Shown here: positions 4,883 through 23,816 of the stretch, piece after piece
Layout of the letters: every line of letters begins with the position of its first letter
Position numbering within the stretch: the first letter of the stretch is position 1
NCBI GenBank assembly: GCA_039111155.1
Contig: JBCCPL010000009.1
Coordinates: 1 to 64,000, forward strand
Length of the DNA stretch: 64,000 nt
DNA from: Pseudomonadota bacterium
GTDB lineage: Bacteria > Pseudomonadota > Gammaproteobacteria > Pseudomonadales > Halieaceae
Reading direction: 5' to 3'
The notes under the pieces: generated by a model
Databases searched by the model: none
Told to the model about the DNA's origin: nothing
What the model saw: the letters and a program-made list of their open reading frames with translations, nothing else
Program-made: the position numbers and the translations under genes

Positions 4883-6109
4883 ATGGTCAGAGCAGTAGCC
4901 TCCTTTCGAGTCTGGATGGCCGTTGTTGCTCTTATCTACCTTCTTTTAATTGGTGTGGCCACCATTGGAGCCGGGTTCAAGTGGATATCCGGAGGGGCCG
5001 ATGGCGCAGCCGCGATTTTCGCTTTTGCTCGAAATCCGCTCTTTGGAGTGATTCTCGGTACTCTGGCAACGGCGCTCGTGCAATCGTCGAGCACGGTGAC
5101 CTCGGTGATTGTGGGCCTGGTCGCAGGCGGGGTCCCCGTGTCGATCGCTGTACCGATGATCATGGGCGCGAATATGGGAACGACGATCACCAATACGATC
5201 GTAAGCCTGGGCAACCTGAACGAGCGCGGTGCGTTTCGCAAATCTTTCGAAGCTGCCACCGTTCACGATTTCTTTAACCTCTACAGCATCCTGGTGTTCC
5301 TGCCGGTAGAGATTCTGTTTCACCCGCTGGAGCGGGTCGGGGCTGAGCTTTCTAAATTACTAGCTAGGGGCACAGGGTCAGCTGCTAGCGGTTTCAATCT
5401 TATTAATGAAGCTACAAGTCCTGCGGCAAAGTTAGTTTTGCAACTCTTCAGCCCATTACCACAAACCGCCGCGGCCCTTTGTACGATCGGCGTGGGTATT
5501 GGTTTTGTGATTGCCTCGGTGATCTACCTGGGCAGAGTACTTCAATCAGTTATGACTGGTAAGGCAAAGGGTATCGTAGACACCGCCATCGGTCGCGGAC
5601 CCATGTCGGGCATTGCCTCGGGCACGGTCGTCACTATTCTTGTTCAGTCTTCTTCGACAACAACCAGTCTGGTAGTGCCGCTCGCGGGAGCCGGTGTACT
5701 CACTACTCGCCAGGTTTATCCCTTTACCTTGGGCGCTAACATTGGCACCTGCGTAACGGCTCTGCTTGCAGCTATGTCGATCACCGGTACCAGTAAGATT
5801 TTCGCACTGCAGATCGCTATGGTGCATCAGCTCTACAACTTAATCGGAGTAGCTCTGTTCACCCTGACACCAGTGCTAAGAGAACTACCTGTTCGCTCCA
5901 GCGAATGGCTCGGATCTTTGGTTGACCGCAATCGTGTGTGGGCATTCGGCTACATCGGCGCCGTGTTTTTTGCGCTACCAGGGATGGTGTTCGGGATTGA
6001 GGCATTGCTGACAGACAGCGAAACCGACCAGCGCCTTAAACCGTGCGAGGAGCTTAAATCAGATTGCTATGACGAGCAGTCGGAGAGTGTGAACCTGAGC
6101 GTCGAATAG
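4883..6109 (+). CDS. Na+/phosphate cotransporter family II (NptA-like)
   Basis: Duplicated 'QSSSTVTSVIVGLVAGG' / 'QSSSTTTSLVVPLAGAG' signature repeats of the Na/Pi-cotransporter family; polytopic membrane protein. Confidence 0.8.
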   Translation: MVRAVASFRVWMAVVALIYLLLIGVATIGAGFKWISGGADGAAAIFAFARNPLFGVILGTLATALVQSSSTVTSVIVGLVAGGVPVSIAVPMIMGANMGTTITNTIVSLGNLNERGAFRKSFEAATVHDFFNLYSILVFLPVEILFHPLERVGAELSKLLARGTGSAASGFNLINEATSPAAKLVLQLFSPLPQTAAALCTIGVGIGFVIASVIYLGRVLQSVMTGKAKGIVDTAIGRGPMSGIASGTVVTILVQSSSTTTSLVVPLAGAGVLTTRQVYPFTLGANIGTCVTALLAAMSITGTSKIFALQIAMVHQLYNLIGVALFTLTPVLRELPVRSSEWLGSLVDRNRVWAFGYIGAVFFALPGMVFGIEALLTDSETDQRLKPCEELKSDCYDEQSESVNLSVE

Positions 6110-7370: not shown

Positions 7371-8609
7371 CTAGTTGCGCCGCAGCCGCACCTGTCCTCT
7401 GATCTCACCCCCAGGGTTCGCCTCGGTGTGAAGGTTGATGTAGATATTGCCGGCCGCCATCTCGTTTAATAGGTTCAAGAAGGGATCATCGCCCTCGGCA
7501 AGCGGACCAACGACAGCTGAGCCATCGATCACCGTATCGATTATCTCGCCGTTGATGGCATCAGTAAGGTTGGCAACCACCGGACCGTTTGTGCCTTCCT
7601 GCCCAAGATGAAGGTGAGCCATAACGACCGGTCCGGACAATCGGCCCTGCGCAATGAACACATCCAGCTCCTGAGCGTTATAGGACGTGAGAGTGGCAAG
7701 ACCACCACCACGGCTTTGTACCGGTACAGCGGTGACTTCCTGACCTGGTGTCAGACGCGATGAGAAGAGTGTCTCCCGAGCCAGGTCGACAAAGCGGAAC
7801 GAAAACTCGGCCGCTCGATATGTGGACGCCAGAAAGTCGGCCATTCCGAAAATAGGATGACTCAAAACGCCATCGGGGAAGGCAAGACCGCTTAAGAACC
7901 CTTCATGAAGGATGACTCCCATACTTTCCGTAACGCCGGTATCCGGTGCGGCTTGGCCAAGAAAAGCGGTGTTGCCCGCGATCTCATCGTTTACTTCGGT
8001 ACCTGCATCGAGCACTTCGCTTCCGGCCACCACAAATGAACTGCCAACAAAACGCCCCTCCTCGTTAAAGAGCTCGTGCGCCAGCGGGTTACCGTTTGCG
8101 ATAAAGGCATCATTACTTGGGATAACCATGGAAGCGTAGCTGAAATAACGGTCGATAGAGGGCTCCACCTGCAGCGTGATGGCCGAACGATCACCAGGAG
8201 CAAATGGTCCCGTCGGTCCAAACATCGTTGCCTGAGGCGCACCAGGTAAGAGATCCTCGAATGCCTCGGTTATAGGCCCGGTTGCGCCATCTTCTGCGAG
8301 CCTCTCTACCGCTGGAGACGGAACGAGGCCTGCGGCACCTAGAGGTACATTGCGATCATATGTATCGAAAGAGCCGTCGTGTATCCCGACCCAGAAAGGA
8401 GTTTGTGCAGCGCCGCGAGAAGGTGCGCTGTTTGTCACGTTAATGATGATCGACGGAAGCGAAAGTTCGCCGTCATCATCATCGGTATCTTGCGCTCCTG
8501 CGGTGTGCGCCAGCATGCCCATCATGACAGCGGTCAGCGCGATCGATAGTGTGGTCTTCTTAGTTTTCATATTCCTTACCTGCCGGGCCGGCCTGCGTAG
8601 GCCGGTCAC
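7371..8609 (-). CDS. secreted spondin_N-domain + CHRD-domain protein
   Basis: Signal peptide (MKTKKTTLSIALTAVMMGMLAHTAGA) and acidic linker (DTDDDDGE). N-terminal half carries 'TPFWVGIHDGSFDTYDRN...LAEDG', characteristic of bacterial spondin_N proteins. C-terminal half carries 'LSGPVVMAHLHLGQEGTNGPVVANL', a CHRD-like motif. Confidence 0.55.
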   Translation of the reverse strand: MTGLRRPARQVRNMKTKKTTLSIALTAVMMGMLAHTAGAQDTDDDDGELSLPSIIINVTNSAPSRGAAQTPFWVGIHDGSFDTYDRNVPLGAAGLVPSPAVERLAEDGATGPITEAFEDLLPGAPQATMFGPTGPFAPGDRSAITLQVEPSIDRYFSYASMVIPSNDAFIANGNPLAHELFNEEGRFVGSSFVVAGSEVLDAGTEVNDEIAGNTAFLGQAAPDTGVTESMGVILHEGFLSGLAFPDGVLSHPIFGMADFLASTYRAAEFSFRFVDLARETLFSSRLTPGQEVTAVPVQSRGGGLATLTSYNAQELDVFIAQGRLSGPVVMAHLHLGQEGTNGPVVANLTDAINGEIIDTVIDGSAVVGPLAEGDDPFLNLLNEMAAGNIYINLHTEANPGGEIRGQVRLRRN

Positions 8610-10796: not shown

Positions 10797-12548
10797 GTGG
10801 ATCAGACTATCGATACGGCAAACGAACCAAAAAATGGCGTGCAAGCCACACCGCCTGCGCGTGATAAAGCGAAGGCGCGTGCGCTCGCCGCAGCTGCGAA
10901 GAAGACACTCATCAAGCCGGACACGGTCAAGGCCTTCAAGAGCCTGCATACCTGGACCGGGGTAGGCGCGGGCATGGCTCTGTTTATCGCCTTCTTTGCC
11001 GGTGCATTGACGGTTTTTCACCACGAGCTGGGGGACTGGGATAGCTACGCCCAGCAAGTACCAAGGGAACAGACCATCGCGGAAGCTCAGCTGCTGGTGG
11101 AGCAAGCCATACTCGACGAGCCGGGTGCGGCAGAAAGCCTGAGGCTATATTTACCAGGCCATCACAGCAACGAGAACGAGGTCTACTGGTACGAGAGACT
11201 CGAGAACGATACGTTTGAGACCCATCGATGGCGCATGGATGATGCGGGAGGCATCGACACATCGCTAGAGACCGCACACGTGGCGGATTTCGTTTATCGA
11301 CTGCACTACACCGGTGGCCTGATGCCGGCACGTCTGGGCCTGTATGCCCTCGGTATCATTTGTGTGCTTTATGGCCTGGCACTGTTCTCCGGCGTGCTGC
11401 TTTTTATCCCCGGCTTTTTAAAAGACCTCTTGGTTGTGCGTAAAGGAGGCAAGAACCCGAAGCGCTTCTGGCTGGACGCACACAATGTGATTGGTGTGGT
11501 TTCGCTGCCCTTTCACATTCTGTTCGCCTGGAGCAGTGCAATTCTGGCGATTGGCGTGTTCTTTCTCGCGCCGTTTCAATACCTGGTGTTTGATGACGAT
11601 CTCACCAAACTCGTCGGTCCGGAACTTGGTTTTGTGGACGCCGTGGAACCAAAAAACGAGCCTGCCGAGATGCTGAGTATTGCTGAGGTCTTAGAGATCG
11701 TAGAGCGCGAACTACCTGGAATGGAACCCGAACAGGTGAGATTCGCCCACTATGGCGATGCAGGTAGCAGCGTCTCAGTGTACGGGGACGCTCCAACGGG
11801 CACCTTGGTAACGGGAGCCGGCGTCACTTTGAATGCGGTTTCCGGTGAAGTCATCTCCTACTTCGATCCTGCCCAGGCGACGCCCGGGGGCACCTTCTAC
11901 CGAGGCTTAATGACTCTGCACTTCGTGGATTTCGGCGGCTACTTCGTTAAGTGGACGTTCTTTACGCTGTCGATGCTCGGGGCGTTCCTGTTCTATTCGG
12001 GCAACCTGCTGTTCGTAGAGAGCCGCCGCAAGCGCCGGGAGCAGCAACAGCCCGGCAAGGCAGTCTTGCTGGCCAAACTTAACAGTGGCGTGTGTATCGG
12101 TGCGATCGCAGGTATCGCCATGGCGATGTTGGCGAGTCGCTTTTTCAGCAACCTGGAGGGCCGGGCGGATCTTACCGAGTTCGCTTACTACACTGTGTTT
12201 CTGCTTGGACTTGGCTGGTCAATCTATCGCCCGGTCGCAAAGGGAACGCGTGATCTACTGAACCTATCAGCCTTACTGTGCTGCGCGATCCCGGTAGTCG
12301 ACGCGACGCTGATCGGTATGCCGCTATGGAAGAGCTTTGTCGAAGGCCATTGGTCACTGTTCGTGATCGACGTCATGGCACTCACGATGGGCGTCTTATT
12401 CTTGCGAATCGCCCGCGCAGTATCACACCGGTCGAAGAACGGCCCTGAGAACAGTGTTTGGTACAACCGGCCAACCGATCGAGAAGCACAGGAGTTAGTA
12501 CCCAACGAAGTTTCTCCGCCGGTCGCAGTGGCGGTAGCAAAAAACTAA
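10797..12548 (+). CDS. PepSY-associated TM-helix (PepSY_TM) membrane protein
   Basis: Long first-TM region containing 'FKSLHTWTGVGAGMALFIAFFAGALTVFHHEL' (PiuB/PepSY_TM signature), followed by periplasmic domains and further TM helices; 583 aa. Confidence 0.7.
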   Translation: MDQTIDTANEPKNGVQATPPARDKAKARALAAAAKKTLIKPDTVKAFKSLHTWTGVGAGMALFIAFFAGALTVFHHELGDWDSYAQQVPREQTIAEAQLLVEQAILDEPGAAESLRLYLPGHHSNENEVYWYERLENDTFETHRWRMDDAGGIDTSLETAHVADFVYRLHYTGGLMPARLGLYALGIICVLYGLALFSGVLLFIPGFLKDLLVVRKGGKNPKRFWLDAHNVIGVVSLPFHILFAWSSAILAIGVFFLAPFQYLVFDDDLTKLVGPELGFVDAVEPKNEPAEMLSIAEVLEIVERELPGMEPEQVRFAHYGDAGSSVSVYGDAPTGTLVTGAGVTLNAVSGEVISYFDPAQATPGGTFYRGLMTLHFVDFGGYFVKWTFFTLSMLGAFLFYSGNLLFVESRRKRREQQQPGKAVLLAKLNSGVCIGAIAGIAMAMLASRFFSNLEGRADLTEFAYYTVFLLGLGWSIYRPVAKGTRDLLNLSALLCCAIPVVDATLIGMPLWKSFVEGHWSLFVIDVMALTMGVLFLRIARAVSHRSKNGPENSVWYNRPTDREAQELVPNEVSPPVAVAVAKN

Positions 12549-12781
12549 CGCCTCACGCGACGTCCATCCGACGCTGAATCCCTAGCTTCTCCCCGGCGTC
12601 GCATTGTAGGCGTTAACGTAGCGGTTTTAGCAGCGCAGCAGTTTTCGCTACCGACACCCCGCTTGATTTTTGTACCTGCTTTTCGCGCCGTGGGCCAGCA
12701 GGGACTGCACCCCAGGACGAGTTCTCTATCCTCACTAGCGAACCCGCGAAATTTCGAACTCAGAGAGTTCGAGATTCAATT

Positions 12782-13351
12782 TCATGAGTTTGACAAGCAC
12801 GCGCTTGTCAGTCGCGCATACAGGCCCGCAACTAACACTCCACTCATTACACCCGCAAGATGCATTTCAAATGAAATGCGTGAATCCGAGGGCACAAGAC
12901 CCCATACCATGCCGCCGTAGAAGAAAACTACGACGACGGCCATGAGCACGCTTTTCAATTTCCGGTCTAACCAGGCAATGCTGATCAGCATCCCCCACAG
13001 TCCATAAACCCAACCGCTTGCACCCAAGTGCGCCGCTTCGCGACCAAAAAGCCAGACCAAGCCACCGCTAATGGCGATGATGCAGGCGCTGCCGAACAGG
13101 AATAGAAGTCTCGATCGGAGAGCTACCATGGATCCAAATACGAGCAGACCCGTGCAGTTGCTCATCAAGTGTGATGAGTTCGCATGTACGAATGGCGCGC
13201 TGAAGATCGTAAACCAACGGCTGTCTGAACGCGGGAGGACACCGTAGAGTTCTGGGCGCAGACCTACCCCGATTGCTGCGGCATGAGCGAGGACCTCTAG
13301 CAATACAACGGCGGTAACCAAGGTTAGTGCCTTCGCCAATCGCCGCAGCAT
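12782..13351 (-). CDS. rhomboid-family intramembrane serine protease (last gene of the giant-ATPase operon)
   Basis: Textbook rhomboid motifs: 'FVHANSSHLMSN' (TM2 H/N), 'GASGWVYGL' (GxSG catalytic Ser, TM4), 'HLAGVMSGVLVAGLY' (catalytic His, TM6). Start at 13351 abuts the stop of the upstream giant gene (13352). Confidence 0.85.
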   Translation of the reverse strand: MLRRLAKALTLVTAVVLLEVLAHAAAIGVGLRPELYGVLPRSDSRWFTIFSAPFVHANSSHLMSNCTGLLVFGSMVALRSRLLFLFGSACIIAISGGLVWLFGREAAHLGASGWVYGLWGMLISIAWLDRKLKSVLMAVVVVFFYGGMVWGLVPSDSRISFEMHLAGVMSGVLVAGLYARLTSACLSNS

Positions 13352-16300
13352 CTAACTACCTGGTGGAGACTCGCCCGCGTCGTGCAGCTCGTCTTGTAGG
13401 CTACGGAGTTGTTGCGAAACCTCGACCATTTTTTCGTGAGTGCGTAGATCGATATCGAGTTTTTTATCCATGTTGCGAATCAGGGGCATAATGCTGTGCT
13501 CTAGAGAATCGGCAAGCGCATTTAAGACCTTATCAATGCCCGGTACGGGTCTGTTCTCGACGGTCACAGCGGGTGCATTCTCCTGTATCGCGGTCACCAA
13601 ACGATCTGCCAATTCCTCAACGCCGGCACGACCCTGCTCATTTTGCTCCGTGGATGACGCAGAAGCCTTTGTTGCCAGTGCGTCTACTCCATTCACCAGG
13701 TCAACGAGCTGCGCCACAACTTTATTGCCCACATCGGCATCGTCGCCGCCGATGGCTTTGTTACGCAAAAAATCCGCCTTAATCTGTTCCCAGCGCTGCC
13801 TCTCCTCCGCGCTCATCACACCGCGCAATTCTTGCAGCTTTAGAAGATTCGCCTCCGCTCCAGTGGTCAAAAGCTGTGCTTCGCCGAGATAGTGATCTTC
13901 GATCATTTGCTGAAGCTCTTCGTCGTTCATCACGGAGGAAATCTTCTCCGTCATTTTGTTCATGTTGCGGTAGCTGCCCTGTAGTTTGAACGGTGGCTCA
14001 ACTCTATACGCGTCCTCTTGGCCAGCTGATTCGATATATTGCTGATTGATCTTCAAGACGATGTCCTGAACTACGAACATCTTGCGCAGCACAGCGGTGA
14101 TTTCATTGATTTCGGCGGCGCTGTAGGCATGGCTGAGATCAGAGGTTGCGACCTCTGCGCCTTTAGCGATAGCAACGAGTTTGTAGACGTCGCCCATCTC
14201 CCGCGTCGCGAGCGGTGCCAGAGCAGTATTGGAAGTCAGGGCGTTTTCGACGTAGCTGAGCGCAAACTGCTCTTCCATTCCACCAAGAATGTCGCCCAAA
14301 TTGTAGATATCTGCGCGGTTGGCCAGCATATCGGGAACTTTGAACGTCTCACCGCTTTCTGTGTAGGGATTACCTGCCATGACTACACAGAACTTTTTTC
14401 CACGCATGTCGTAGGTCTTGCTGACACCCTTCCAAACGCCTTCGATGCGTCGCGTGCCATCACAGAGGGATATGAACTTCTGTAGAAACTCCGGATGGGT
14501 ATGCTGAATATCGTCTAGGTACAGCATTACGTTGGAGCCCATTTCAAGTGCAAGATTGAGTTTTTCAAGCTCACTGGAAGCAGTCGAATTTGGCGCTTGT
14601 AGCGGATCGAGGGACTTAACGTCGTGGCCAAGTGCGGGACAATTGATCTTCATGAAAACAAGACCCAGACGACTGGCGACGTATTCCATCAAGGTTGTCT
14701 TACCGTAACCCGGTGGTGAAATCATCATCAGCAGGCCCATGAGGTCCGTTCTCTTGCTCTGGCCGAAAGTACCCATCTGCTTCGCTAGGTTGTCCCCGAT
14801 GAGTGGTAGATATGACTCATTAATCAAGCGATTGCGAACGAACGAACTCAGTGGTCGGGCCCGGAACTCCTCAAGGCGTAGATTTTTACGAGCGAAAGAA
14901 ACTGCCGACCGACGCTGTTCAAGATAGCTTTGATATGCGGGCACAACCTCGGTTCTATGCTGTTCCAAACGCAATAGGAACGTATCAATGGCAAACTCGA
15001 GAGACTGATCTTTAATCGTGGGATGTTCCCCAAGGAGTCCGCCGACTCGCAGCTCAGTTTCAACCGAGGTAGCCCGCCGGGTCAGGGTCTTTTCCGCATT
15101 GATGTGTGCTACCGCCTCAGGAATATAATGCTCGTAGTGAGACAGTCCTTTGCTCTTGACCATGGCAGTAAGCCACGCCGTGCTCAATTGCCATCGCTGG
15201 GCAGGCCAGCCTTTCATTTGCCGCAGCGCGTGCTTTAGCTGTCGCCAGGTCCGCTCGCCAACGGCCGTTGTCAGTTCTGTGACCAACGATTGCGCATACT
15301 TACTGCCAATAAACTCAAGATGCTCACGACTCAACTCTTCGACCAAGTATTGAGCAGCCCGCTGCACCTGCAGCGTCGAGACGGGAATCGGATGCAGATC
15401 GAGAAAGTCCTGAAGCGCTCGCTGCACTTCTTGGGACAACAGGCTTAGGGCGTCGCTACGTGCAAATGTTGACTTCATCTGTGCGCCGGATTGCGCACGC
15501 TCACGCCAGGTCTCGTGCGAAAGGCGCTGCACCGGGGTGCCGGGATCGATTTCGACAATCGTCTCCGTGGCATGCAGGTTCGCCCAAAACACCTGCGCAA
15601 GACCGCGGCTGGCCGGGTCAAAGGTCAGCAGGTCGCAGCGCTGCATGGCCGAGGTGACTTCGTCAAGAATCAGGAGCGCATCGTGATCATGAACGCCCTT
15701 TACGTATCCTTCTTTGTAGTGCTTGGTGACAAATCTCTGAATTAGAGCCTCAAGTTTCTTGCGGTCGACTGGCGCATTGTCTGCGGTCGCGTTCGCAAAG
15801 TCTTGTCCCCGTTGCAGCTCCACAAGGACCGTGTACGCAAGGTATTCGCTCCGGTATACCGTCGGACCCTCGGACTCAAGGGTCATTTCCCAGTAGTCGC
15901 TAAGCGCATCTAGACTCGGGTCGTCGATTGGCTCAAAGAAATCAGTTCCTGTGAGATGAAGGTCGAGACGACCCTCCCGCGGGATGATACTGAGATCAAG
16001 CTCCTGTGTATTGACGGAGAAACGATGCCGGGGCCCAAGCCGAATGACGGCTCCATCGTCCTCGAAAATATCGCTCTTATCACGAAGCGAACGGTGTGCC
16101 AGCTCGCTGGCGGCTTTGAATCGAGCCTCTATGTCATCGGCTTTTACCGCACTCCCTAAATCGCGGAGCTGCTCGCAGAAATCTCCAACTTTAAGCACTA
16201 GGGGGTCAGATGCAAAATAGGTGTTCAATGCATCCTGATCGGCCAGAGTAAGAGAGCGCTTTTCGATATTTACCAGTGTCCGCTCTGCTGCATCGGCAAT

Positions 16301-18647: not shown

Positions 18648-20534
18648 TCAAATCGAATCGCGCTCTGTCGCTACACTCGCCTCGGGGCGAGCTTCCAAAA
18701 CCCGGTCAATAAGGGCAGAGATCGTGCCACTCTTCTCCGCAAGCCCATCCACCGCTTTCCCGATGGATAGTGACTTGGCGAAGTTGTCGAAGAAGTGCTC
18801 TTCACCACCCACAATATCGATCTTTGCTTTTTCAAGCGCAGTTGCCAGAACCTCCGCATTCTCGCGAGCTATTTCTTTACCGGCTTCGATAGACGCCAAC
18901 GCCTCCCTAAGGGCTGTCTCCAGACCCATGCGGTACTCCTCGTGAGCCCGGGCTTCCACGCTCATGCTGTTCATTGCGTCGAACTTATCGGTTAGGCCGT
19001 CGGCCTCGGCCTTGAACTGCTCTCGGGTAACCTCGGCCTGGGCCTTGCCGGTTCCGAGAAGAGCATCCGCCTCGGCATCGCCCTTCGCCTTGATCACAGT
19101 TGCCTCGGCAAGGCCTTCTTTTTCTAGCGCATCGGCTTTTGCGGCCTGCACTCGTGCCTCGGCGAGCCCTGTTGCGGCTTCCTCCGCCTGTGTACCCTCG
19201 GCGAGCTGCTTCTTTGCATCGGCCTCTTTTGCGGCTGCATCCAACTCAGCCTGAGCGATCGTTGTGATTTCCACTGCCTTGTGGCGAGCGGCGGCCTCCT
19301 CGGCTTCTGCAGCTTTCACTTGCTTGGTTTTTTCCTCCTCTGCCTGCGCTTCCGCCGCAAGAACCTGGGTCTGCTTAAGGCGATCCGCCTCGGAAACTTC
19401 ACGAACCTCCTTAATGTTCTCTTCCTCGATTGCTACGGTCTTGTCGACGGCGACCCTTTCACGAATGACGTTGGCGATTTCCTTCTTTTCAACCTCAACG
19501 GCTTTCTCCGCCTCTATCTTTTGCAGCTCGACCTCTCGCTCCCGGGATACAACTTCCAGATCGCGTGCTCGCGTCACCTTCTCCTGCTCGATAGCCACTG
19601 CTCGCTGACGATTCTGCTCCGCCACCTCGATCTCCCGCTGCTGATTCTCGGTCTGTACGGCAAGTTCCTGCGCTACCTGAATCGCAGTAGTTTCAGCCCG
19701 TTGCCGCTCTTCTTCTTGTACTTTTTTAGTCTCCGCTTCTTCACGGGCACGAATGGTCGCTATTTCACGCTCTTGCTTGGCTTCCGCGTCCGCTTGCTGG
19801 CGCTCCAGTTCGAGCATGGCCTCGACGGTCTCCACGTTCTTCTTCTTTATCGCCAACTCTTCGTCACGTTCGAGATCATTTGTGCGGACGTTCTGTGCTG
19901 CCGTAAGTTCTGTGATTTTCTTGATGCCTTCTGCATCTAGAATATTGGTGGGATCGAGAGAGCCTTTAGGAGTCTGCTCAAGATAATCGATGGCAACATC
20001 CTCGAGTACGTAGCCGTTCAGATCGTCTCCGATCACCTGGATAATCTTTTCTCGGAAGTCCTGACGATTTTCGAACAACTGCACAAAGTCGATCTGCTTG
20101 CCTACAGTTTTCAGCGCTTCAGAGAACTTGGCATTGAACAGCTCGTTCACAGCGACCCTGTCTGATGCACGGCTCGCTCCGATCGATTTTGCGACCTTTA
20201 AAACATCGTCCGCAGTCTCGTTCACCCGTAAGTAGAACGCGACAACGATGTCAGCGCGCATATTGTCTTTACAGATCAGTCCATCCGTTCCCCGCCGATC
20301 TATCTCCAGAGTGATCAGTGAGATACGCATTAGCTCTTTCTTGTAAATGATTGGGTAAACAAGTGCGCCCGTGAAATGAACCTTCGGACGCGAACTCATA
20401 TCGTTCACAATCAGCGCAGTCCCCTGCTCGACCTTCACATAGAAAGCCTTAAAGATGGCTGCAAATCCCATCAGGATGACAAAGAAAATGCCTACGCCAG
20501 TCACAATAGGCATTAACACAGAAAGGTCAGCCAT
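18648..20534 (-). CDS. flotillin-family SPFH/band-7 protein (YqiK-like)
   Basis: N-terminal TM helix, SPFH core ('VKVEQGTALIVNDMSS...', 'RADIVVAFYLRV'), then ~250 aa of E/A/K/Q-rich flotillin-type coiled coil; 628 aa. Confidence 0.9.
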   Translation of the reverse strand: MADLSVLMPIVTGVGIFFVILMGFAAIFKAFYVKVEQGTALIVNDMSSRPKVHFTGALVYPIIYKKELMRISLITLEIDRRGTDGLICKDNMRADIVVAFYLRVNETADDVLKVAKSIGASRASDRVAVNELFNAKFSEALKTVGKQIDFVQLFENRQDFREKIIQVIGDDLNGYVLEDVAIDYLEQTPKGSLDPTNILDAEGIKKITELTAAQNVRTNDLERDEELAIKKKNVETVEAMLELERQQADAEAKQEREIATIRAREEAETKKVQEEERQRAETTAIQVAQELAVQTENQQREIEVAEQNRQRAVAIEQEKVTRARDLEVVSREREVELQKIEAEKAVEVEKKEIANVIRERVAVDKTVAIEEENIKEVREVSEADRLKQTQVLAAEAQAEEEKTKQVKAAEAEEAAARHKAVEITTIAQAELDAAAKEADAKKQLAEGTQAEEAATGLAEARVQAAKADALEKEGLAEATVIKAKGDAEADALLGTGKAQAEVTREQFKAEADGLTDKFDAMNSMSVEARAHEEYRMGLETALREALASIEAGKEIARENAEVLATALEKAKIDIVGGEEHFFDNFAKSLSIGKAVDGLAEKSGTISALIDRVLEARPEASVATERDSI

Positions 20535-20592: not shown

Positions 20593-21282
20593 TTAGCCAC
20601 CACGAAACTCATCTTCCGAGATAACCCGATACACGCCTTCATCTTTGCGATGTTCAAGCAGCACTACCCGATCACCGCGGGTATAGGTCGCGTCACCGGT
20701 AGCACGAACCTTCAGGATCAGGCCTGCGCCGCCGTCTTCGAGTAGAGCTTCGCCAAATTCTGCATTGACAACAGACGTGCGTACGACCGCCGACTGTCCG
20801 AGTACCTTCTTGACGGTTTGTTGAAGCGCTTTTTTAAACAGCGGACGCATTGGTTTGATCACTTGCGCAGTGATCATCGTTGCCACGTAAAGCGCCAAGC
20901 CAAGGATTGGAATACCCGCACCGAAACGCAGAAAACCTTCCGGCAGGGGCCGAAGAAAAAAGTGGCTGAGATAATAGGAGATCAACCACCCAAACAGCGC
21001 GATACAGGACACGATGATCGTTACGGGGACACCGGTCAGCCCGAAGCGCAAGAGCAGGCCAGCCAAAACATCCGGATTGGATAGCCCCTGATCTGCAGCT
21101 CCAAGCACGCTATCTGTCTCGGGCAGGTCAAAGTCGAGAAACTCGATATCTACGAGCCCAAGAACTGCGATCGCCCAGTAGAGCAGTACCACACCGAGAA
21201 GGACGGTAAAGACAATCGTCGGAAAAGAAGCAATCGTCTGGTAGAACGGGTTCATACCTTCAGTCAGAAAAATCGCGAACAT
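20593..21282 (-). CDS. YqiJ/NfeD-like inner-membrane protein (flotillin operon partner)
   Basis: Polytopic membrane N-half and soluble beta-rich C-half ('VVRTSVVNAEFGEALLEDGGAGLILKVRATGDATYTRGDRVVLLE'), resembling the NfeD/YqiJ OB-fold tail. Positioned immediately upstream of the flotillin gene, as in yqiJK-type pairs. Confidence 0.6.
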   Translation of the reverse strand: MFAIFLTEGMNPFYQTIASFPTIVFTVLLGVVLLYWAIAVLGLVDIEFLDFDLPETDSVLGAADQGLSNPDVLAGLLLRFGLTGVPVTIIVSCIALFGWLISYYLSHFFLRPLPEGFLRFGAGIPILGLALYVATMITAQVIKPMRPLFKKALQQTVKKVLGQSAVVRTSVVNAEFGEALLEDGGAGLILKVRATGDATYTRGDRVVLLEHRKDEGVYRVISEDEFRGG

Positions 21283-21355: not shown

Positions 21356-22042
21356 CTACTGTTTTGCCCTGAGACGGTCCAGCACCTCATCGGCGCTCGC
21401 GCCTGACGGCGCAATTCCCGCCTGCTCCAATTTGGTCTGTAGAGTTTCACTGGAGCTCTCATCGGCCAGATCGCGGGCCGCGTTCATCCTCGCCGCATTC
21501 AGCGCCTGCTTCTCCTTGATGCGCTCCAACGAATCCATCGCGGTACGCATCTTTGAGTTAGAACCACTATGACGCTCGGCAACAGCGGCTTGTGCGCGCT
21601 GTACGTTTTCTGTGGCTTTGACTGTATCCACCTGCTGCTTGATGCGTTTCAAATTCTGTTCGGTTTGATTGATCGCCGCGCGTAAATCATCGGCCTGCTT
21701 TTTGTAACCCGCAACGGACTCCCGCTCGTGGGTAAGCTGGTTTTCCATATCTGCGATTTTCTCAGCGACATCCCGCGCTAAAGCAGTATCACCCTTGTCG
21801 AGAGCCTGAATGGCATAGCCTTCGTGCTCCTCGATCTTGGCTACCAAACTCTCCGATTTCTCTTCCGCAAGCTTCTGGTGAGCAAGTATTTCTGCCAGTC
21901 CGTCCCGCGATAGCTTTAATTCTTCTGCTGCGTCTCGAACCTCCTGGTCGAGAATTCTCAGGGCCTGAGAATCCACGATCGCCTCTCCCGCTTCATTCAC
22001 ACCACCACGAAGCGCCGTCATCATTTTTGCCCAGATATTCAT
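21356..22042 (-). CDS. PspA/IM30-family protein (bacterial ESCRT-III homologue; YjfJ-like)
   Basis: 228-aa all-helical protein. N-terminus 'MNIWAKMMTALRGGVNEAGEAIVDSQALRILDQEVRDAAEELKLSRDGLAEILAHQKLAEEK' matches the PspA/IM30 helix-0/helix-1 layout. No pspBC or pspF nearby. Confidence 0.8.
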   Translation of the reverse strand: MNIWAKMMTALRGGVNEAGEAIVDSQALRILDQEVRDAAEELKLSRDGLAEILAHQKLAEEKSESLVAKIEEHEGYAIQALDKGDTALARDVAEKIADMENQLTHERESVAGYKKQADDLRAAINQTEQNLKRIKQQVDTVKATENVQRAQAAVAERHSGSNSKMRTAMDSLERIKEKQALNAARMNAARDLADESSSETLQTKLEQAGIAPSGASADEVLDRLRAKQ

Positions 22043-22060: not shown

Positions 22061-22690
22061 TTAGACGGCCTCTGCCGTAACGTCGAGAAACTCCATATAG
22101 GCTTGTGTCGCCTGCAATACATTGCTCGCTAGCACTTCAATCTCAAGCACGACATTCTGCAGCTTGGATGCGGCACTCAATGCACCGAACATTTGGTAGA
22201 CCTCATCATCATCGCTGATTCTGTCGAGACTGATCGTTGAAAGGGGAAAGTACTTGTGTGTTCGAAGCACAGCATCGTTGAACGCTGCGACATCTACCAC
22301 GTCACTGGCTGGCCAGAGCACCGACTCAGCAATGATCTGCTCCCCCGAGACGGTGAGAAAAATCGGTAGATCCCCGTATTCGGTCATGACGATATGCAGT
22401 GATGCATCCACACCATCAATGAGTTCGATTCTCGCGCGCCCGGTAGTTGTCATCTCGTGATCGCTGAGCGCCTCATATAGGCTTTTTGTACTCCAAAAAT
22501 CCACCTTCTCACTCATGCTTACACCTCCTTCCGGTTTGAGCTGATCACGGTCCTCACGCAAAAGCTTCTCTATCCGCAACAATTCCCTCGAGGTCTCGGG
22601 GCGAATCCAGACTTCTTTTTTCACTAAGCCTTTTTGGCGTAACCGCTTGCGGTATTCGCGTTGATAATGCGCTGAAGATTTGATCACCAT
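22061..22690 (-). CDS. fusion of an N-terminal ribbon-helix-helix-like DNA-binding module with a DUF2170 (YjfI-like) domain
   Basis: From Met at 22690: 'MVIKSSAHYQREYRKRLRQKGLVKKEVWIRPETSRELLRIEKLLRE' (basic beta-strand then helix, RHH/CopG-like), followed by ~150 aa resembling the YjfI/DUF2170 partner of YjfJ-type PspA. The longest ORF extends to 22801, but that extension overlaps the palindromic promoter region. Confidence 0.5.
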   Translation of the reverse strand: MVIKSSAHYQREYRKRLRQKGLVKKEVWIRPETSRELLRIEKLLREDRDQLKPEGGVSMSEKVDFWSTKSLYEALSDHEMTTTGRARIELIDGVDASLHIVMTEYGDLPIFLTVSGEQIIAESVLWPASDVVDVAAFNDAVLRTHKYFPLSTISLDRISDDDEVYQMFGALSAASKLQNVVLEIEVLASNVLQATQAYMEFLDVTAEAV

Positions 22691-22707
22691 GGATGCAGCG
22701 TAGCATG

Positions 22708-22740
22708 TTACATGTAAGATTAAAATGATATTACATGTAA
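22708..22740 (-). promoter_or_regulatory. pair of perfect TTACATGTAA palindromes (putative operator) overlapping the operon promoter
   Basis: TTACATGTAA at 22708-22717 and 22731-22740 (centres 23 bp apart, AT-rich spacer), 18-50 nt upstream of the ATG at 22690. Further ACATGT-core half-sites at 23015-23023 and 23050-23055. Confidence 0.45.
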
Positions 22741-23426
22741 TAGTTTGAAAGGATAATTGAACAAGCCTGAGTGGCGTTACACCCGACGCGCATGGACGCA
22801 TGGATTTGTGGCTTCCATAAGCGCCTGATTGCCGGAGTTCAGGTCATTCCTTGAGCCTTACTCTGAGTCTTCGGAGCGTTAAGCCGGGAATTGCCTTTGA
22901 TCCCAGATCTTAAGAAACCCACATCGATGGATTGGCATTGAAGACCCGCGCCCTGCGCTCGGTATGGTATCGGTTCGCACAGAAAATCACCGAGATACAA
23001 AGATTTCTCTCTATTACATGTTCCCGGCGAGACGCGGGTAGACGCCTGCACATGTAGCTGCTTCTACTGAGTTCGCTAAGCGAACCTTGATAAACAACGC
23101 TTCACCGACTCAGTGGTAATCGGGCAAGCGAGTGAGTAGACAGTTAACGCTTCGACGAAAACCGCTGGTTTGCGGTTCGTCGAGAGGCGAATCGGACGTA
23201 GCGATAGCCGCAGGTCAAAGAAAGTCTGATCATGATCACCCGAAGCATTCCAAACAGGGCCGCATCGAGCGGCATAGAGACAGGCTGCGAGGGACTAAAT
23301 CCCGCCCTATGAAGACCACAGATTTTTGACGGTTGAGTGAAAAAGCACTCTTTAGAGTTATAGAAAGCAATTCATCAGGGCAGCGATTGCAAACTGAAAC
23401 AATTAAGTCGAGACGAGATCGGCGCA

Positions 23427-23816
23427 CTAACCCAACGCGACGGAGGCAACCAGGGCAATCAGGCCGACTAGAAAAGCCGCGTGCTCAATGAAAGCTAGCG
23501 TGTCGAACCGGATCCAATCCTGCCACTTGTTTTCGTAGATGCTCTCAGTCAGTTCTATGGTCTTTCCATCCTTGGCGACATTCTGTATTGCGGCTGGGAT
23601 GGCCCCGACCAGTAACGTCGCGGCAATTACTGATATCAGTAACGCCACTACAGCAGTGATCAACAAGCGTCCCGGCCATGTCTCAATGCTAAAGACAGCG
23701 CTTTTGGCTATCGTGATACCGACAGCCGACAACGTTTGAATCGAAATCGCCCATTTGCTCCAGTCGGCTAGACTGTTTAGCGCTTCGATTCTTCGTTTCT
23801 CTATATCGTCTGCCAT
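23427..23816 (-). CDS. hypothetical small membrane protein (129 aa)
   Basis: Three to four predicted TM helices; no motif recognised. Confidence 0.4.
   Translation of the reverse strand: MADDIEKRRIEALNSLADWSKWAISIQTLSAVGITIAKSAVFSIETWPGRLLITAVVALLISVIAATLLVGAIPAAIQNVAKDGKTIELTESIYENKWQDWIRFDTLAFIEHAAFLVGLIALVASVALG

Follow-up and report, generated by a model that had tools for sequence, protein, structure and literature searches.

For only a handful of bacterial rhomboid proteases is it known what they do in the cell and what they cleave, and PspA/flotillin membrane-stress systems outside Escherichia coli are poorly understood. A locus that brings the two together raises the question of what a rhomboid does at the end of an operon for PspA, an NfeD-like protein and a flotillin, and which proteins it cuts there. 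Here we report the analysis of such a locus in the metagenome-assembled genome of an uncultured gammaproteobacterium of the family Halieaceae (Pseudomonadota: Pseudomonadales; GenBank assembly GCA_039111155.1, contig JBCCPL010000009.1, positions 1 to 64,000 of the forward strand). This whole stretch of 64,000 nucleotides (nt) is called the window, and positions refer to it unless a related locus (numbered with L) is named. The rhomboid gene directly follows that of a giant AAA+ ATPase in an operon of the bac type. Sequence comparison and a structure model lead us to hold, with high confidence, that its product is a minimal rhomboid of six helices, competent for catalysis, and that this is an optional last member of bac-type operons, is translated in tight coupling with the ATPase and belongs to a clade which recurs in genomes beside the DUF2170-PspA pair. 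Neither the operon class nor the rhomboid family is new, and the NCBI record already labels the window gene a rhomboid protease. Searches of the literature (DUF3686; rhomboid with flotillin and operon; rhomboid with phage shock protein) returned no paper on a rhomboid in bac-type operons or on one recurring with DUF2170-PspA.

The operon comprises six genes in the order DUF2170/BacA, PspA, YqiJ-like protein, YqiK-type flotillin, giant AAA+ ATPase and rhomboid (Table 1). Read directly, the minus strand across the last junction is ...CCACCAGGTAGT TAG ATG CTG CGG..., in which the stop codon (13354-13352) closes the ATPase open reading frame (ORF) and the next triplet (13351-13349) is the rhomboid start codon. 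An earlier note on this DNA had described a rhomboid gene abutting the giant ATPase gene, and both its coordinates and its description were right. An AGG lies 7 nt 5' of the rhomboid ATG, inside the end of the upstream ATPase gene, and Pseudomonas orthologues have GAGG at a similar distance ahead of GTGA. The junction is the tightest of the operon, the others measuring 18, 73, 58 and 28 nt. Taken singly it carries little weight, because abutment is common between operon genes; its weight comes from its conservation.

Conservation was assessed with a scan of species-representative genomes based on an ATPase alignment, which yielded 572 relatives. The best 80 matches were analysed (51-64% identity), as were the best 80 of a second scan based on the rhomboid. 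Genes in the related loci were called from our own ORF predictions and hidden Markov models; 73 of the 80 ATPase loci could be assessed, and seven had too little downstream sequence. The rhomboid gene lies directly 3' of the ATPase gene and on the same strand in 43 of the 73, so the adjacency recurs well beyond the window and an objection from missing synteny does not hold. Another 28 loci have no rhomboid within 10 kb and keep the flotillin and YqiJ-like genes. In the remaining two (L021, 4992-5543, minus strand; L038, 5143-5691, minus strand) the rhomboid gene is divergent and lies about 100 bp upstream of bacA, so that linkage to the operon is retained without translational coupling. By this comparison the rhomboid is an optional component of the operon.

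Spacing could be compared at 42 junctions. The two genes overlap by 4 nt (ATGA or GTGA) in 23, by 1 nt in three and by about 14 nt in one; a gap of 3-4 nt separates them in four, and gaps of 10-70 nt in the other 11. The tight junctions, overlapping or at most 4 nt apart (31/42), span Cellvibrionales, Oceanospirillales and Pseudomonas, which bears out the translational coupling proposed in the earlier note. Across these genomes, the coupled junction is a conserved feature and not an accident of the window genome, and to judge by sequence there is little doubt that ATPase and rhomboid share a transcript and are coupled in translation. The "stoichiometric co-expression" that the note had read from the junction goes too far: coupling makes the expression of the two genes interdependent, but it does not establish a fixed stoichiometry. 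Pairwise divergences of rhomboid and ATPase are strongly correlated (Pearson 0.91, Mantel p ~0.001), the rhomboid evolving about 1.5 times faster. The G + C content of the rhomboid gene (0.547; 0.600 at third codon positions) agrees with that of the rest of the operon, so the gene is not a recent insertion. A recent horizontal acquisition was ruled out by this operon-like composition together with a divergence that tracks that of the ATPase.

The rhomboid protein matches Pfam family PF01694 over residues 45-178 (E 4e-19, 69.7 bits against a cutoff of 22.6). Its GxSG motif is G110-A-S112-G113, with the catalytic Ser112 in transmembrane helix 4, His164 in helix 6 and the HxxxN motif in helix 2. 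Among 46 orthologues H61 and N65 (helix 2), G110-x-S112-G113, H164, G167 and G171 (G167xxxG171) are invariant, and the same alignment gives a set of clade-specific invariant residues (P40, P53, H56, R104, H108, P154, S160 and E162). The catalytic motifs line up with the corresponding motifs of Haemophilus influenzae GlpG, and the whole length of the family profile aligns with the minimal six-helix structure of that protein (2NR9). An AlphaFold2 model (pLDDT 91.6, pTM 0.88) was compared with the PDB using Foldseek, and the top 33 matches were all GlpG structures, with TM-scores of 0.59-0.70. From the alignment and the model, the window protein is apparently an active protease of an uncharacterised clade with a six-helix core.

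The genomic context of this clade was examined in a metagenome search with the rhomboid alignment, in which 508 relatives were found and the best 80 kept. The giant ATPase gene is upstream of the rhomboid gene in 11 of these 80 loci, directly adjacent in 10 and with an M90 peptidase gene between in one. The DUF2170-PspA pair stands beside the rhomboid without the ATPase in 19, and about four short contigs bear other genes of a yjfIJ-type operon. Where each of the two flanks is longer than 2.5 kb, only 11 of the 80 loci have neither the ATPase nor DUF2170-PspA. A minority of the clade sits elsewhere, beside an M90 peptidase or near a UvrA paralogue. Three loci (L126, L133, L151) show a further layout: some 3 kb separate the rhomboid gene from a downstream DUF2170-PspA pair, the PspA shares 57-58% identity with that of the window, and the available flank holds no ATPase.

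The yjfIJ-type operons occur in two arrangements by Pfam assignment. In one the order is DUF2170-PspA-rhomboid-K+ channel-DUF2491-DUF350-DUF1190-GSP_synth, the last gene being glutathionylspermidine-synthase-like, and in the other the identical gene set has the rhomboid last. The first, with the rhomboid directly after pspA, is found in the complete genome of Pseudomonas synxantha (CP011117.2; L170, 7612-13674), and two further yjfIJ-type loci (L110, L123) also have a member of the clade. The yjfIJ-type operons with a rhomboid are devoid of flotillin, YqiJ-like and giant ATPase genes. On this evidence from gene neighbourhoods, it is DUF2170-PspA that the rhomboid clade has as its constant partner; neither the flotillin nor the YqiJ-like protein nor the ATPase fills that place.

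The yjf-type rhomboid arrangement seems to be widespread across the P. fluorescens group, with 3859 protein clusters at E 1e-20 or better. In P. synxantha, the bac-type rhomboid (from a metagenome-assembled genome given this species label) and the yjf-type rhomboid (from genomes of the species) share 52% identity, more than either shares with the window rhomboid (37-44%; 37% for the yjf-type). In an approximate neighbour-joining tree the yjf-type clade is sister to the Pseudomonas bac-type clade. Species of the P. fluorescens group appear to carry two PspA operons with one rhomboid paralogue in each, where the presence of both in one genome is deduced from species labels.

The earlier note had nominated the flotillin, the NfeD-like protein and PspA, all correctly identified as partners in the operon, as candidate substrates, and had proposed that the rhomboid supplies a protease activity that the NfeD-like protein lacks. 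Dedicated processing of the flotillin or the YqiJ/NfeD-like protein, in place of the ClpP-like domain of long NfeD proteins, would suit an operon that encodes a single-pass SPFH protein with glycines in its transmembrane helix together with the short, protease-less type of NfeD. The rhomboid is co-inherited with both in 45 of the 73 genomes, and an N-out single-pass helix is the topology of TatA, a known rhomboid substrate that PMC7232013 also mentions. The idea predicts, however, that the rhomboid follows those two genes, and what was observed is otherwise: the 28 operons without a rhomboid keep the pair, and the yjf-type operons carry the same rhomboid clade with neither gene and without the ATPase. 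Nor does the flotillin differ between operons with and without a rhomboid, either in its N-terminal anchor and transmembrane helix or in a TatA-like N-terminal extension that might mark a substrate; in L014, which has no rhomboid, its start is MADLSVLMPIVTGVGIFF, identical to that in the window. In E. coli, moreover, yqiJK stands alone, and no protease gene adjoins it. The model is therefore without comparative support, as is the rhomboid as provider of a missing NfeD protease, and we consider it unlikely. The natural expectation of the flotillin or NfeD-like protein as the client is corrected accordingly. We rate a role in signalling about equally unlikely. Here the rhomboid would be a membrane sensor or anchor like PspB/PspC or LiaI that controls PspA release or operon induction, either through proteolysis of a factor tethered to the membrane or through binding to PspA or DUF2170. 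These operons are without membrane partners of the PspB/PspC type (Ravi et al. 2024, PMC11237479), DUF2170 and PspA are the only constant neighbours of the rhomboid, whose gene is directly 3' of pspA in yjf-type operons, BacA behaves like a negative regulator in P. aeruginosa (PMC10948618), and a conserved operator-like palindrome precedes bacA. Yet no gene for a tethered regulator or an anti-sigma-like protein was seen in the operon with Pfam and NCBIfam, many bac-type operons, including the one studied in P. aeruginosa, function without a rhomboid, and the strict conservation of catalytic residues marks the protein as a protease without in itself pointing to signalling.

Two further explanations would detach the rhomboid from the operon. 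It might be a housekeeping membrane protease that stands at the operon end by chance and shares no function with it, as the clade members in unrelated contexts and the dispensability of the gene in many operons would allow. This is disfavoured and very improbable, given junctions that overlap or leave at most 4 nt in most loci across three groups of bacteria, a gene that stays by bacA even when moved to the other side of the operon, and members of the clade that lie inside PspA operons of a second type, in other respects unrelated to the first. Sorting of the rhombosortase kind, in which a GlyGly-CTERM-type anchor tag is removed from secreted proteins and which would be unrelated to the function of the operon, is hardly credible at all. 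Rhombosortase (RrtA, TIGR03902) is likewise a small rhomboid with six transmembrane segments, and its model, the nearest curated one, is the sole NCBIfam match of the window protein (E 1e-12). The score of 48.3 bits is nevertheless far under the cutoff of 84, no GlyGly-CTERM-like tail and hence no visible client was found among the ORFs of the window, and the conserved context is PspA operons and not genes for secreted proteins; the identity was rejected.

We favour the reading that the rhomboid is a membrane-protein clearance protease of PspA stress modules, to which we give a probability of about 0.4. Because membrane-protein stress is a classical trigger of the Psp response and characterised rhomboids act in clearance, a rhomboid induced together with PspA would clear damaged transmembrane proteins. 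Membrane stress would induce the operon, PspA and the flotillin would stabilise and organise the damaged membrane patch, and within this patch the rhomboid would cleave, in their transmembrane helices, membrane proteins that are damaged, orphaned or wrongly inserted. Cytoplasmic machinery would then dispose of the pieces, namely the coupled AAA+ ATPase in bac-type operons and the adjacent M90 metallopeptidase in some lineages. A degradative role is supported by the overlap of the rhomboid gene with a Peptidase_M90 gene in several loci, a pair also found outside bac operons. The rhomboid would thus be one of several interchangeable, membrane-acting "effector" genes in the operon tail, which also include those for a PLD-like hydrolase, a zinc-ribbon protein and the M90 peptidase, and would not be a dedicated processing enzyme for the flotillin or the NfeD-like protein.

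Several observations weigh against clearance as its function. PspA and DUF2170 have no transmembrane segment and are consequently not classical rhomboid substrates, so that the tie to them is one of gene context. No protease or membrane-extraction domain can be recognised in the giant ATPase, which is also without a solved relative, so that a part for it as "extractor" is speculation. The rhomboid is missing from 38% of the related bac-type operons, and its role would therefore be accessory or covered by another protease. About one quarter of the well-flanked clade members stand in unrelated contexts, and the clade tree is rough.

The wider proposal that may follow is a tentative one, and we hold it somewhat less firmly than the clearance role itself. 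A distinct clade of small rhomboids may be a dedicated and repeatedly recruited part of PspA (ESCRT-III-type) repair systems headed by a DUF2170 chaperone; the bac-type module, with its coupled ATPase and flotillin, would then be a counterpart of the mitochondrial SPFH-rhomboid-AAA hub or of rhomboid/derlin-p97 extraction. The presence of the rhomboid in two types of PspA operon points to action under membrane stress together with PspA. If this is true, the paralogues in the two operons of the P. fluorescens group would be a natural and genetically accessible setting in which to look for the proteins that bacterial rhomboids cut in the cell. Cultivable species of Pseudomonas, Stutzerimonas and Cellvibrio are among the carriers, and the bac-type operon with a rhomboid occurs in Stutzerimonas stutzeri, Ectopseudomonas alcaliphila, Ectopseudomonas chengduensis, Cellvibrio mixtus and the P. 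fluorescens group, so that mutant, proteomic and interaction work is practical.

Table 1. Features of the bac-type operon and its borders in the window
Feature	Position	Strand	Basis
Rhomboid-family intramembrane serine protease gene, 189 aa, minimal form with six transmembrane segments, last gene of the operon	12782..13351	-	PF01694, alignment, AlphaFold2
TAG-ATG stop-start junction of ATPase and rhomboid genes, spacer 0 nt	13349..13354	-	direct sequence reading
Shine-Dalgarno-like AGGTAG within the 3' end of the ATPase gene (putative function)	13356..13361	-	sequence
Weak terminator-like hairpin with T run beyond the rhomboid 3' end, where the convergent PepSY_TM gene ends	12547..12564	-	pattern scan
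Giant DUF3686/DUF7902/AAA+ ATPase gene, 1755 aa, BacE-like, no predicted transmembrane segment	13352..18619	-	Pfam
YqiK-type flotillin gene, 628 aa, BacD-like; N-terminal transmembrane segment, SPFH domain, long coiled coil	18648..20534	-	hhalign
YqiJ/YuaF-like gene, 229 aa, BacC-like; three transmembrane segments, short NfeD type	20593..21282	-	hhalign
PspA/IM30 gene, 228 aa, BacB-like	21356..22042	-	Pfam PF04012, E 1.3e-45
DUF2170/BacA-like gene	22061..22690 (ORF to 22801)	-	NCBIfam NF050185, Pfam DUF2170
Pair of exact TTACATGTAA palindromes, 23 bp from one to the next, closely preceding bacA; candidate operator of the whole operon	22708..22740	.	sequence

The giant ATPase matches Pfam DUF3686 (E 2e-193) in addition to the DUF7902 and AAA domains. 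Its homologues form more than 5767 clusters, the best matches being 60-68% identical, and its nearest relatives are in Cellvibrionales. PDB searches with the single sequence and with a profile gave nothing significant, and the AAA+ clade could not be assigned. The public name of the protein, "DNA repair ATPase", comes from the description of Pfam DUF3686; it looks like a misnomer, because the protein sits in membrane-stress operons and has no solved relative.

The flotillin and the YqiJ-like protein had no Pfam match even at E 10 and no NCBIfam match, and sequence searches of the PDB returned only noise; they were therefore identified by aligning profiles with E. coli YqiK and YqiJ. The 628-aa protein matches YqiK with a probability of 99.9% (E 3e-31, 416 columns) and has one transmembrane segment (residues 10-28). 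The match of the 229-aa protein to YqiJ is moderate (probability 87%, E 3.7e-6); no protease domain was found in it with Pfam, as the earlier note had held, and it resembles the short YqiJ form. Both proteins are a blind spot of the domain libraries, although the family is large.

The window BacA matches NCBIfam model NF050185 with 302.3 bits against a cutoff of 300, aligned to ORF residues 38-242, and Pfam DUF2170 at E 5e-50; the ORF extends to 22801, and the NCBIfam model begins at the ATG at 22690. A PDB entry for a DUF2170 family protein of 146 aa (8q8o) matches it at E 1e-42 and covers residues 65-204 only. The basic N-terminal stretch of about 64 aa lies outside the known DUF2170 fold and is a candidate DNA-binding part. 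A membrane ORF of 129 aa without a family match (23427-23816, minus strand) precedes bacA in the same orientation, at a distance of about 740 bp. At the other end of the operon, a PepSY_TM gene (10797-12548, plus strand) converges on the 3' end of the rhomboid gene; a terminator scan in this region gave a single site, no more than shuffled sequence gives, which is suggestive at most. Searches of the operon proteins with the PADLOC models of defence systems produced no match, apart from coiled-coil noise with PspA (E ~5e-4).

The palindromes upstream of bacA, at 22708-22717 and 22731-22740, are the only two copies of TTACATGTAA in the window. Among 61 related loci, ranging from Cellvibrionales to Pseudomonas, 58 have boxes of the form T[TC]ACATGT[AG]A ahead of bacA, in two or three copies at a spacing of 21-25 bp; these look like a conserved operator for the whole operon. 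The yjf-type operons have a related palindrome, CTCACGCGTGAG, upstream of the DUF2170 gene (L170, about 7450-7600; L123, about 5300-5480; L116), and L154 has CTCACATGTGAT; the TCAC/GTGA half-sites are shared and the centre differs. This likeness suggests that the bac and yjf palindromes share a family of DNA-binding regulators, possibly the DUF2170 proteins themselves.

Behind the ATPase gene the operons are modular. The tail holds varied combinations of the rhomboid, a PLD-like hydrolase of about 230 aa, a double zinc-ribbon protein of about 180 aa and small proteins, and in one sub-lineage a Peptidase_M90 gene that overlaps the rhomboid gene. In the window the rhomboid is the sole tail gene, and no homologue of the M90, PLD or zinc-ribbon proteins was found anywhere in its 64 kb. 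The gene of the M90 protein, which is MtfA-like and has a SEC-C motif, overlaps that of the rhomboid or directly adjoins it in L006 (15812-16645), L016, L086, L088, L095, L099, L091, L098, L090 and L093, the last being the same contig region as L166; the sub-lineage includes the nearest relative of the window. The zinc-ribbon protein, which has two TFIIB-type ribbons, is a frequent and sometimes the only tail gene (L007, 15298-15831; L027; L029; L035; L084; L001, 10623-11165), often followed at its 3' side by small ORFs of 79 and 100 aa. Most pseudomonads have the order ATPase-rhomboid-PLD. The P. aeruginosa lineage (P. paraeruginosa L080; L076, L078) has ATPase-PLD without the rhomboid, the PLD-like (HKD) hydrolase gene following the ATPase gene at 15204-15911 in L080, at 15146-15835 in L076, and in L078. 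Since most other pseudomonads have the rhomboid between the two genes, it was presumably lost in this lineage.

The closest studied system is the bacABCDEF operon of P. aeruginosa (PA3732-PA3727; Mace 2008, PMC2587700; 2024 BacA study, PMC10948618). Its first five genes and their order are the same as in the window, as are the palindromic boxes upstream of bacA. The cluster is one transcript by reverse transcription PCR, and its products increase 6-13 fold in a bacA mutant (PMC10948618). The sixth gene, however, would be PLD-like, where the window has the rhomboid: to judge from L080, the published bacF is probably the PLD-like gene, and a literature search for PA3727/PA3728 gave nothing useful on bacF. 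The 2024 study makes no mention of a rhomboid, which is thus an undescribed addition to this "biofilm-associated cluster", lost in the lineage of P. aeruginosa itself. Earlier papers proposed a sigma-54 (-24/-12) promoter upstream of bacA for the P. aeruginosa operon, whereas a search for TGGCAC-N5-TTGCW with up to two mismatches gave no match at 22690-22900 of the window, where the TTACATGTAA boxes are found instead.

The core architecture of the window operon is identical to that of a class described by Ravi et al. (2024, PMC11237479), composed of CesT/DUF2170, PspA, YqiJ/YuaF, a TM-band-7 flotillin and a novel AAA+ ATPase, with a PLD gene noted in some Proteobacteria. The text of that paper contains neither "rhomboid" nor "protease", and a rhomboid is described there in neither class of PspA operon. 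The yjfIJKLMC-type operon of E. coli (DUF2170-PspA-DUF2491-DUF350-DUF1190-glutathionylspermidine-synthase-like) shares the DUF2170-PspA pair at its head with the window operon. Unlike the latter, operons of this type lack the flotillin, the YqiJ-like protein and the giant ATPase, and their rhomboid gene follows pspA or comes last; the E. coli operon itself is not known to have a rhomboid.

In the archaeal stomatin/NfeD system of Pyrococcus (PH1511/PH1510) an SPFH gene adjoins a gene of the NfeD family, and the SPFH partner is proteolysed. The window likewise has an SPFH gene beside that of an NfeD-family membrane protein, but this is the short YqiJ/YuaF form without a ClpP-like protease, and the comparative data do not tie the rhomboid clade to the SPFH/NfeD pair. 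In mitochondria, SLP2, PARL and YME1L form a "proteolytic hub", a single membrane assembly in which a scaffold of the SPFH class is joined by a rhomboid protease and an AAA+ enzyme (Wai et al. 2016, as cited in PMC7966987). The window operon encodes one protein of each class. The likeness is striking but an analogy only: the AAA+ protein of the window is of another family and has no peptidase domain, and the rhomboid clade also occurs in operons without an SPFH protein.

Nearest to the function that we favour for the window rhomboid are the bacterial clearance systems. YqgP (GluP) of Bacillus subtilis works with the AAA protease FtsH in the clearance of membrane proteins (PMC7231995), and GlpG and Rhom7 of Shigella clear orphan or faulty membrane proteins and license their further degradation (PMC7232013). 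None of the three is encoded in a PspA/flotillin operon, YqgP has extra domains, and the AAA+ partner in the window has no protease domain and is unrelated to FtsH. Like YqgP, the window rhomboid would have an AAA+ machine as its partner, and together YqgP-FtsH and GlpG/Rhom7 provide the functional model that we favour for it.

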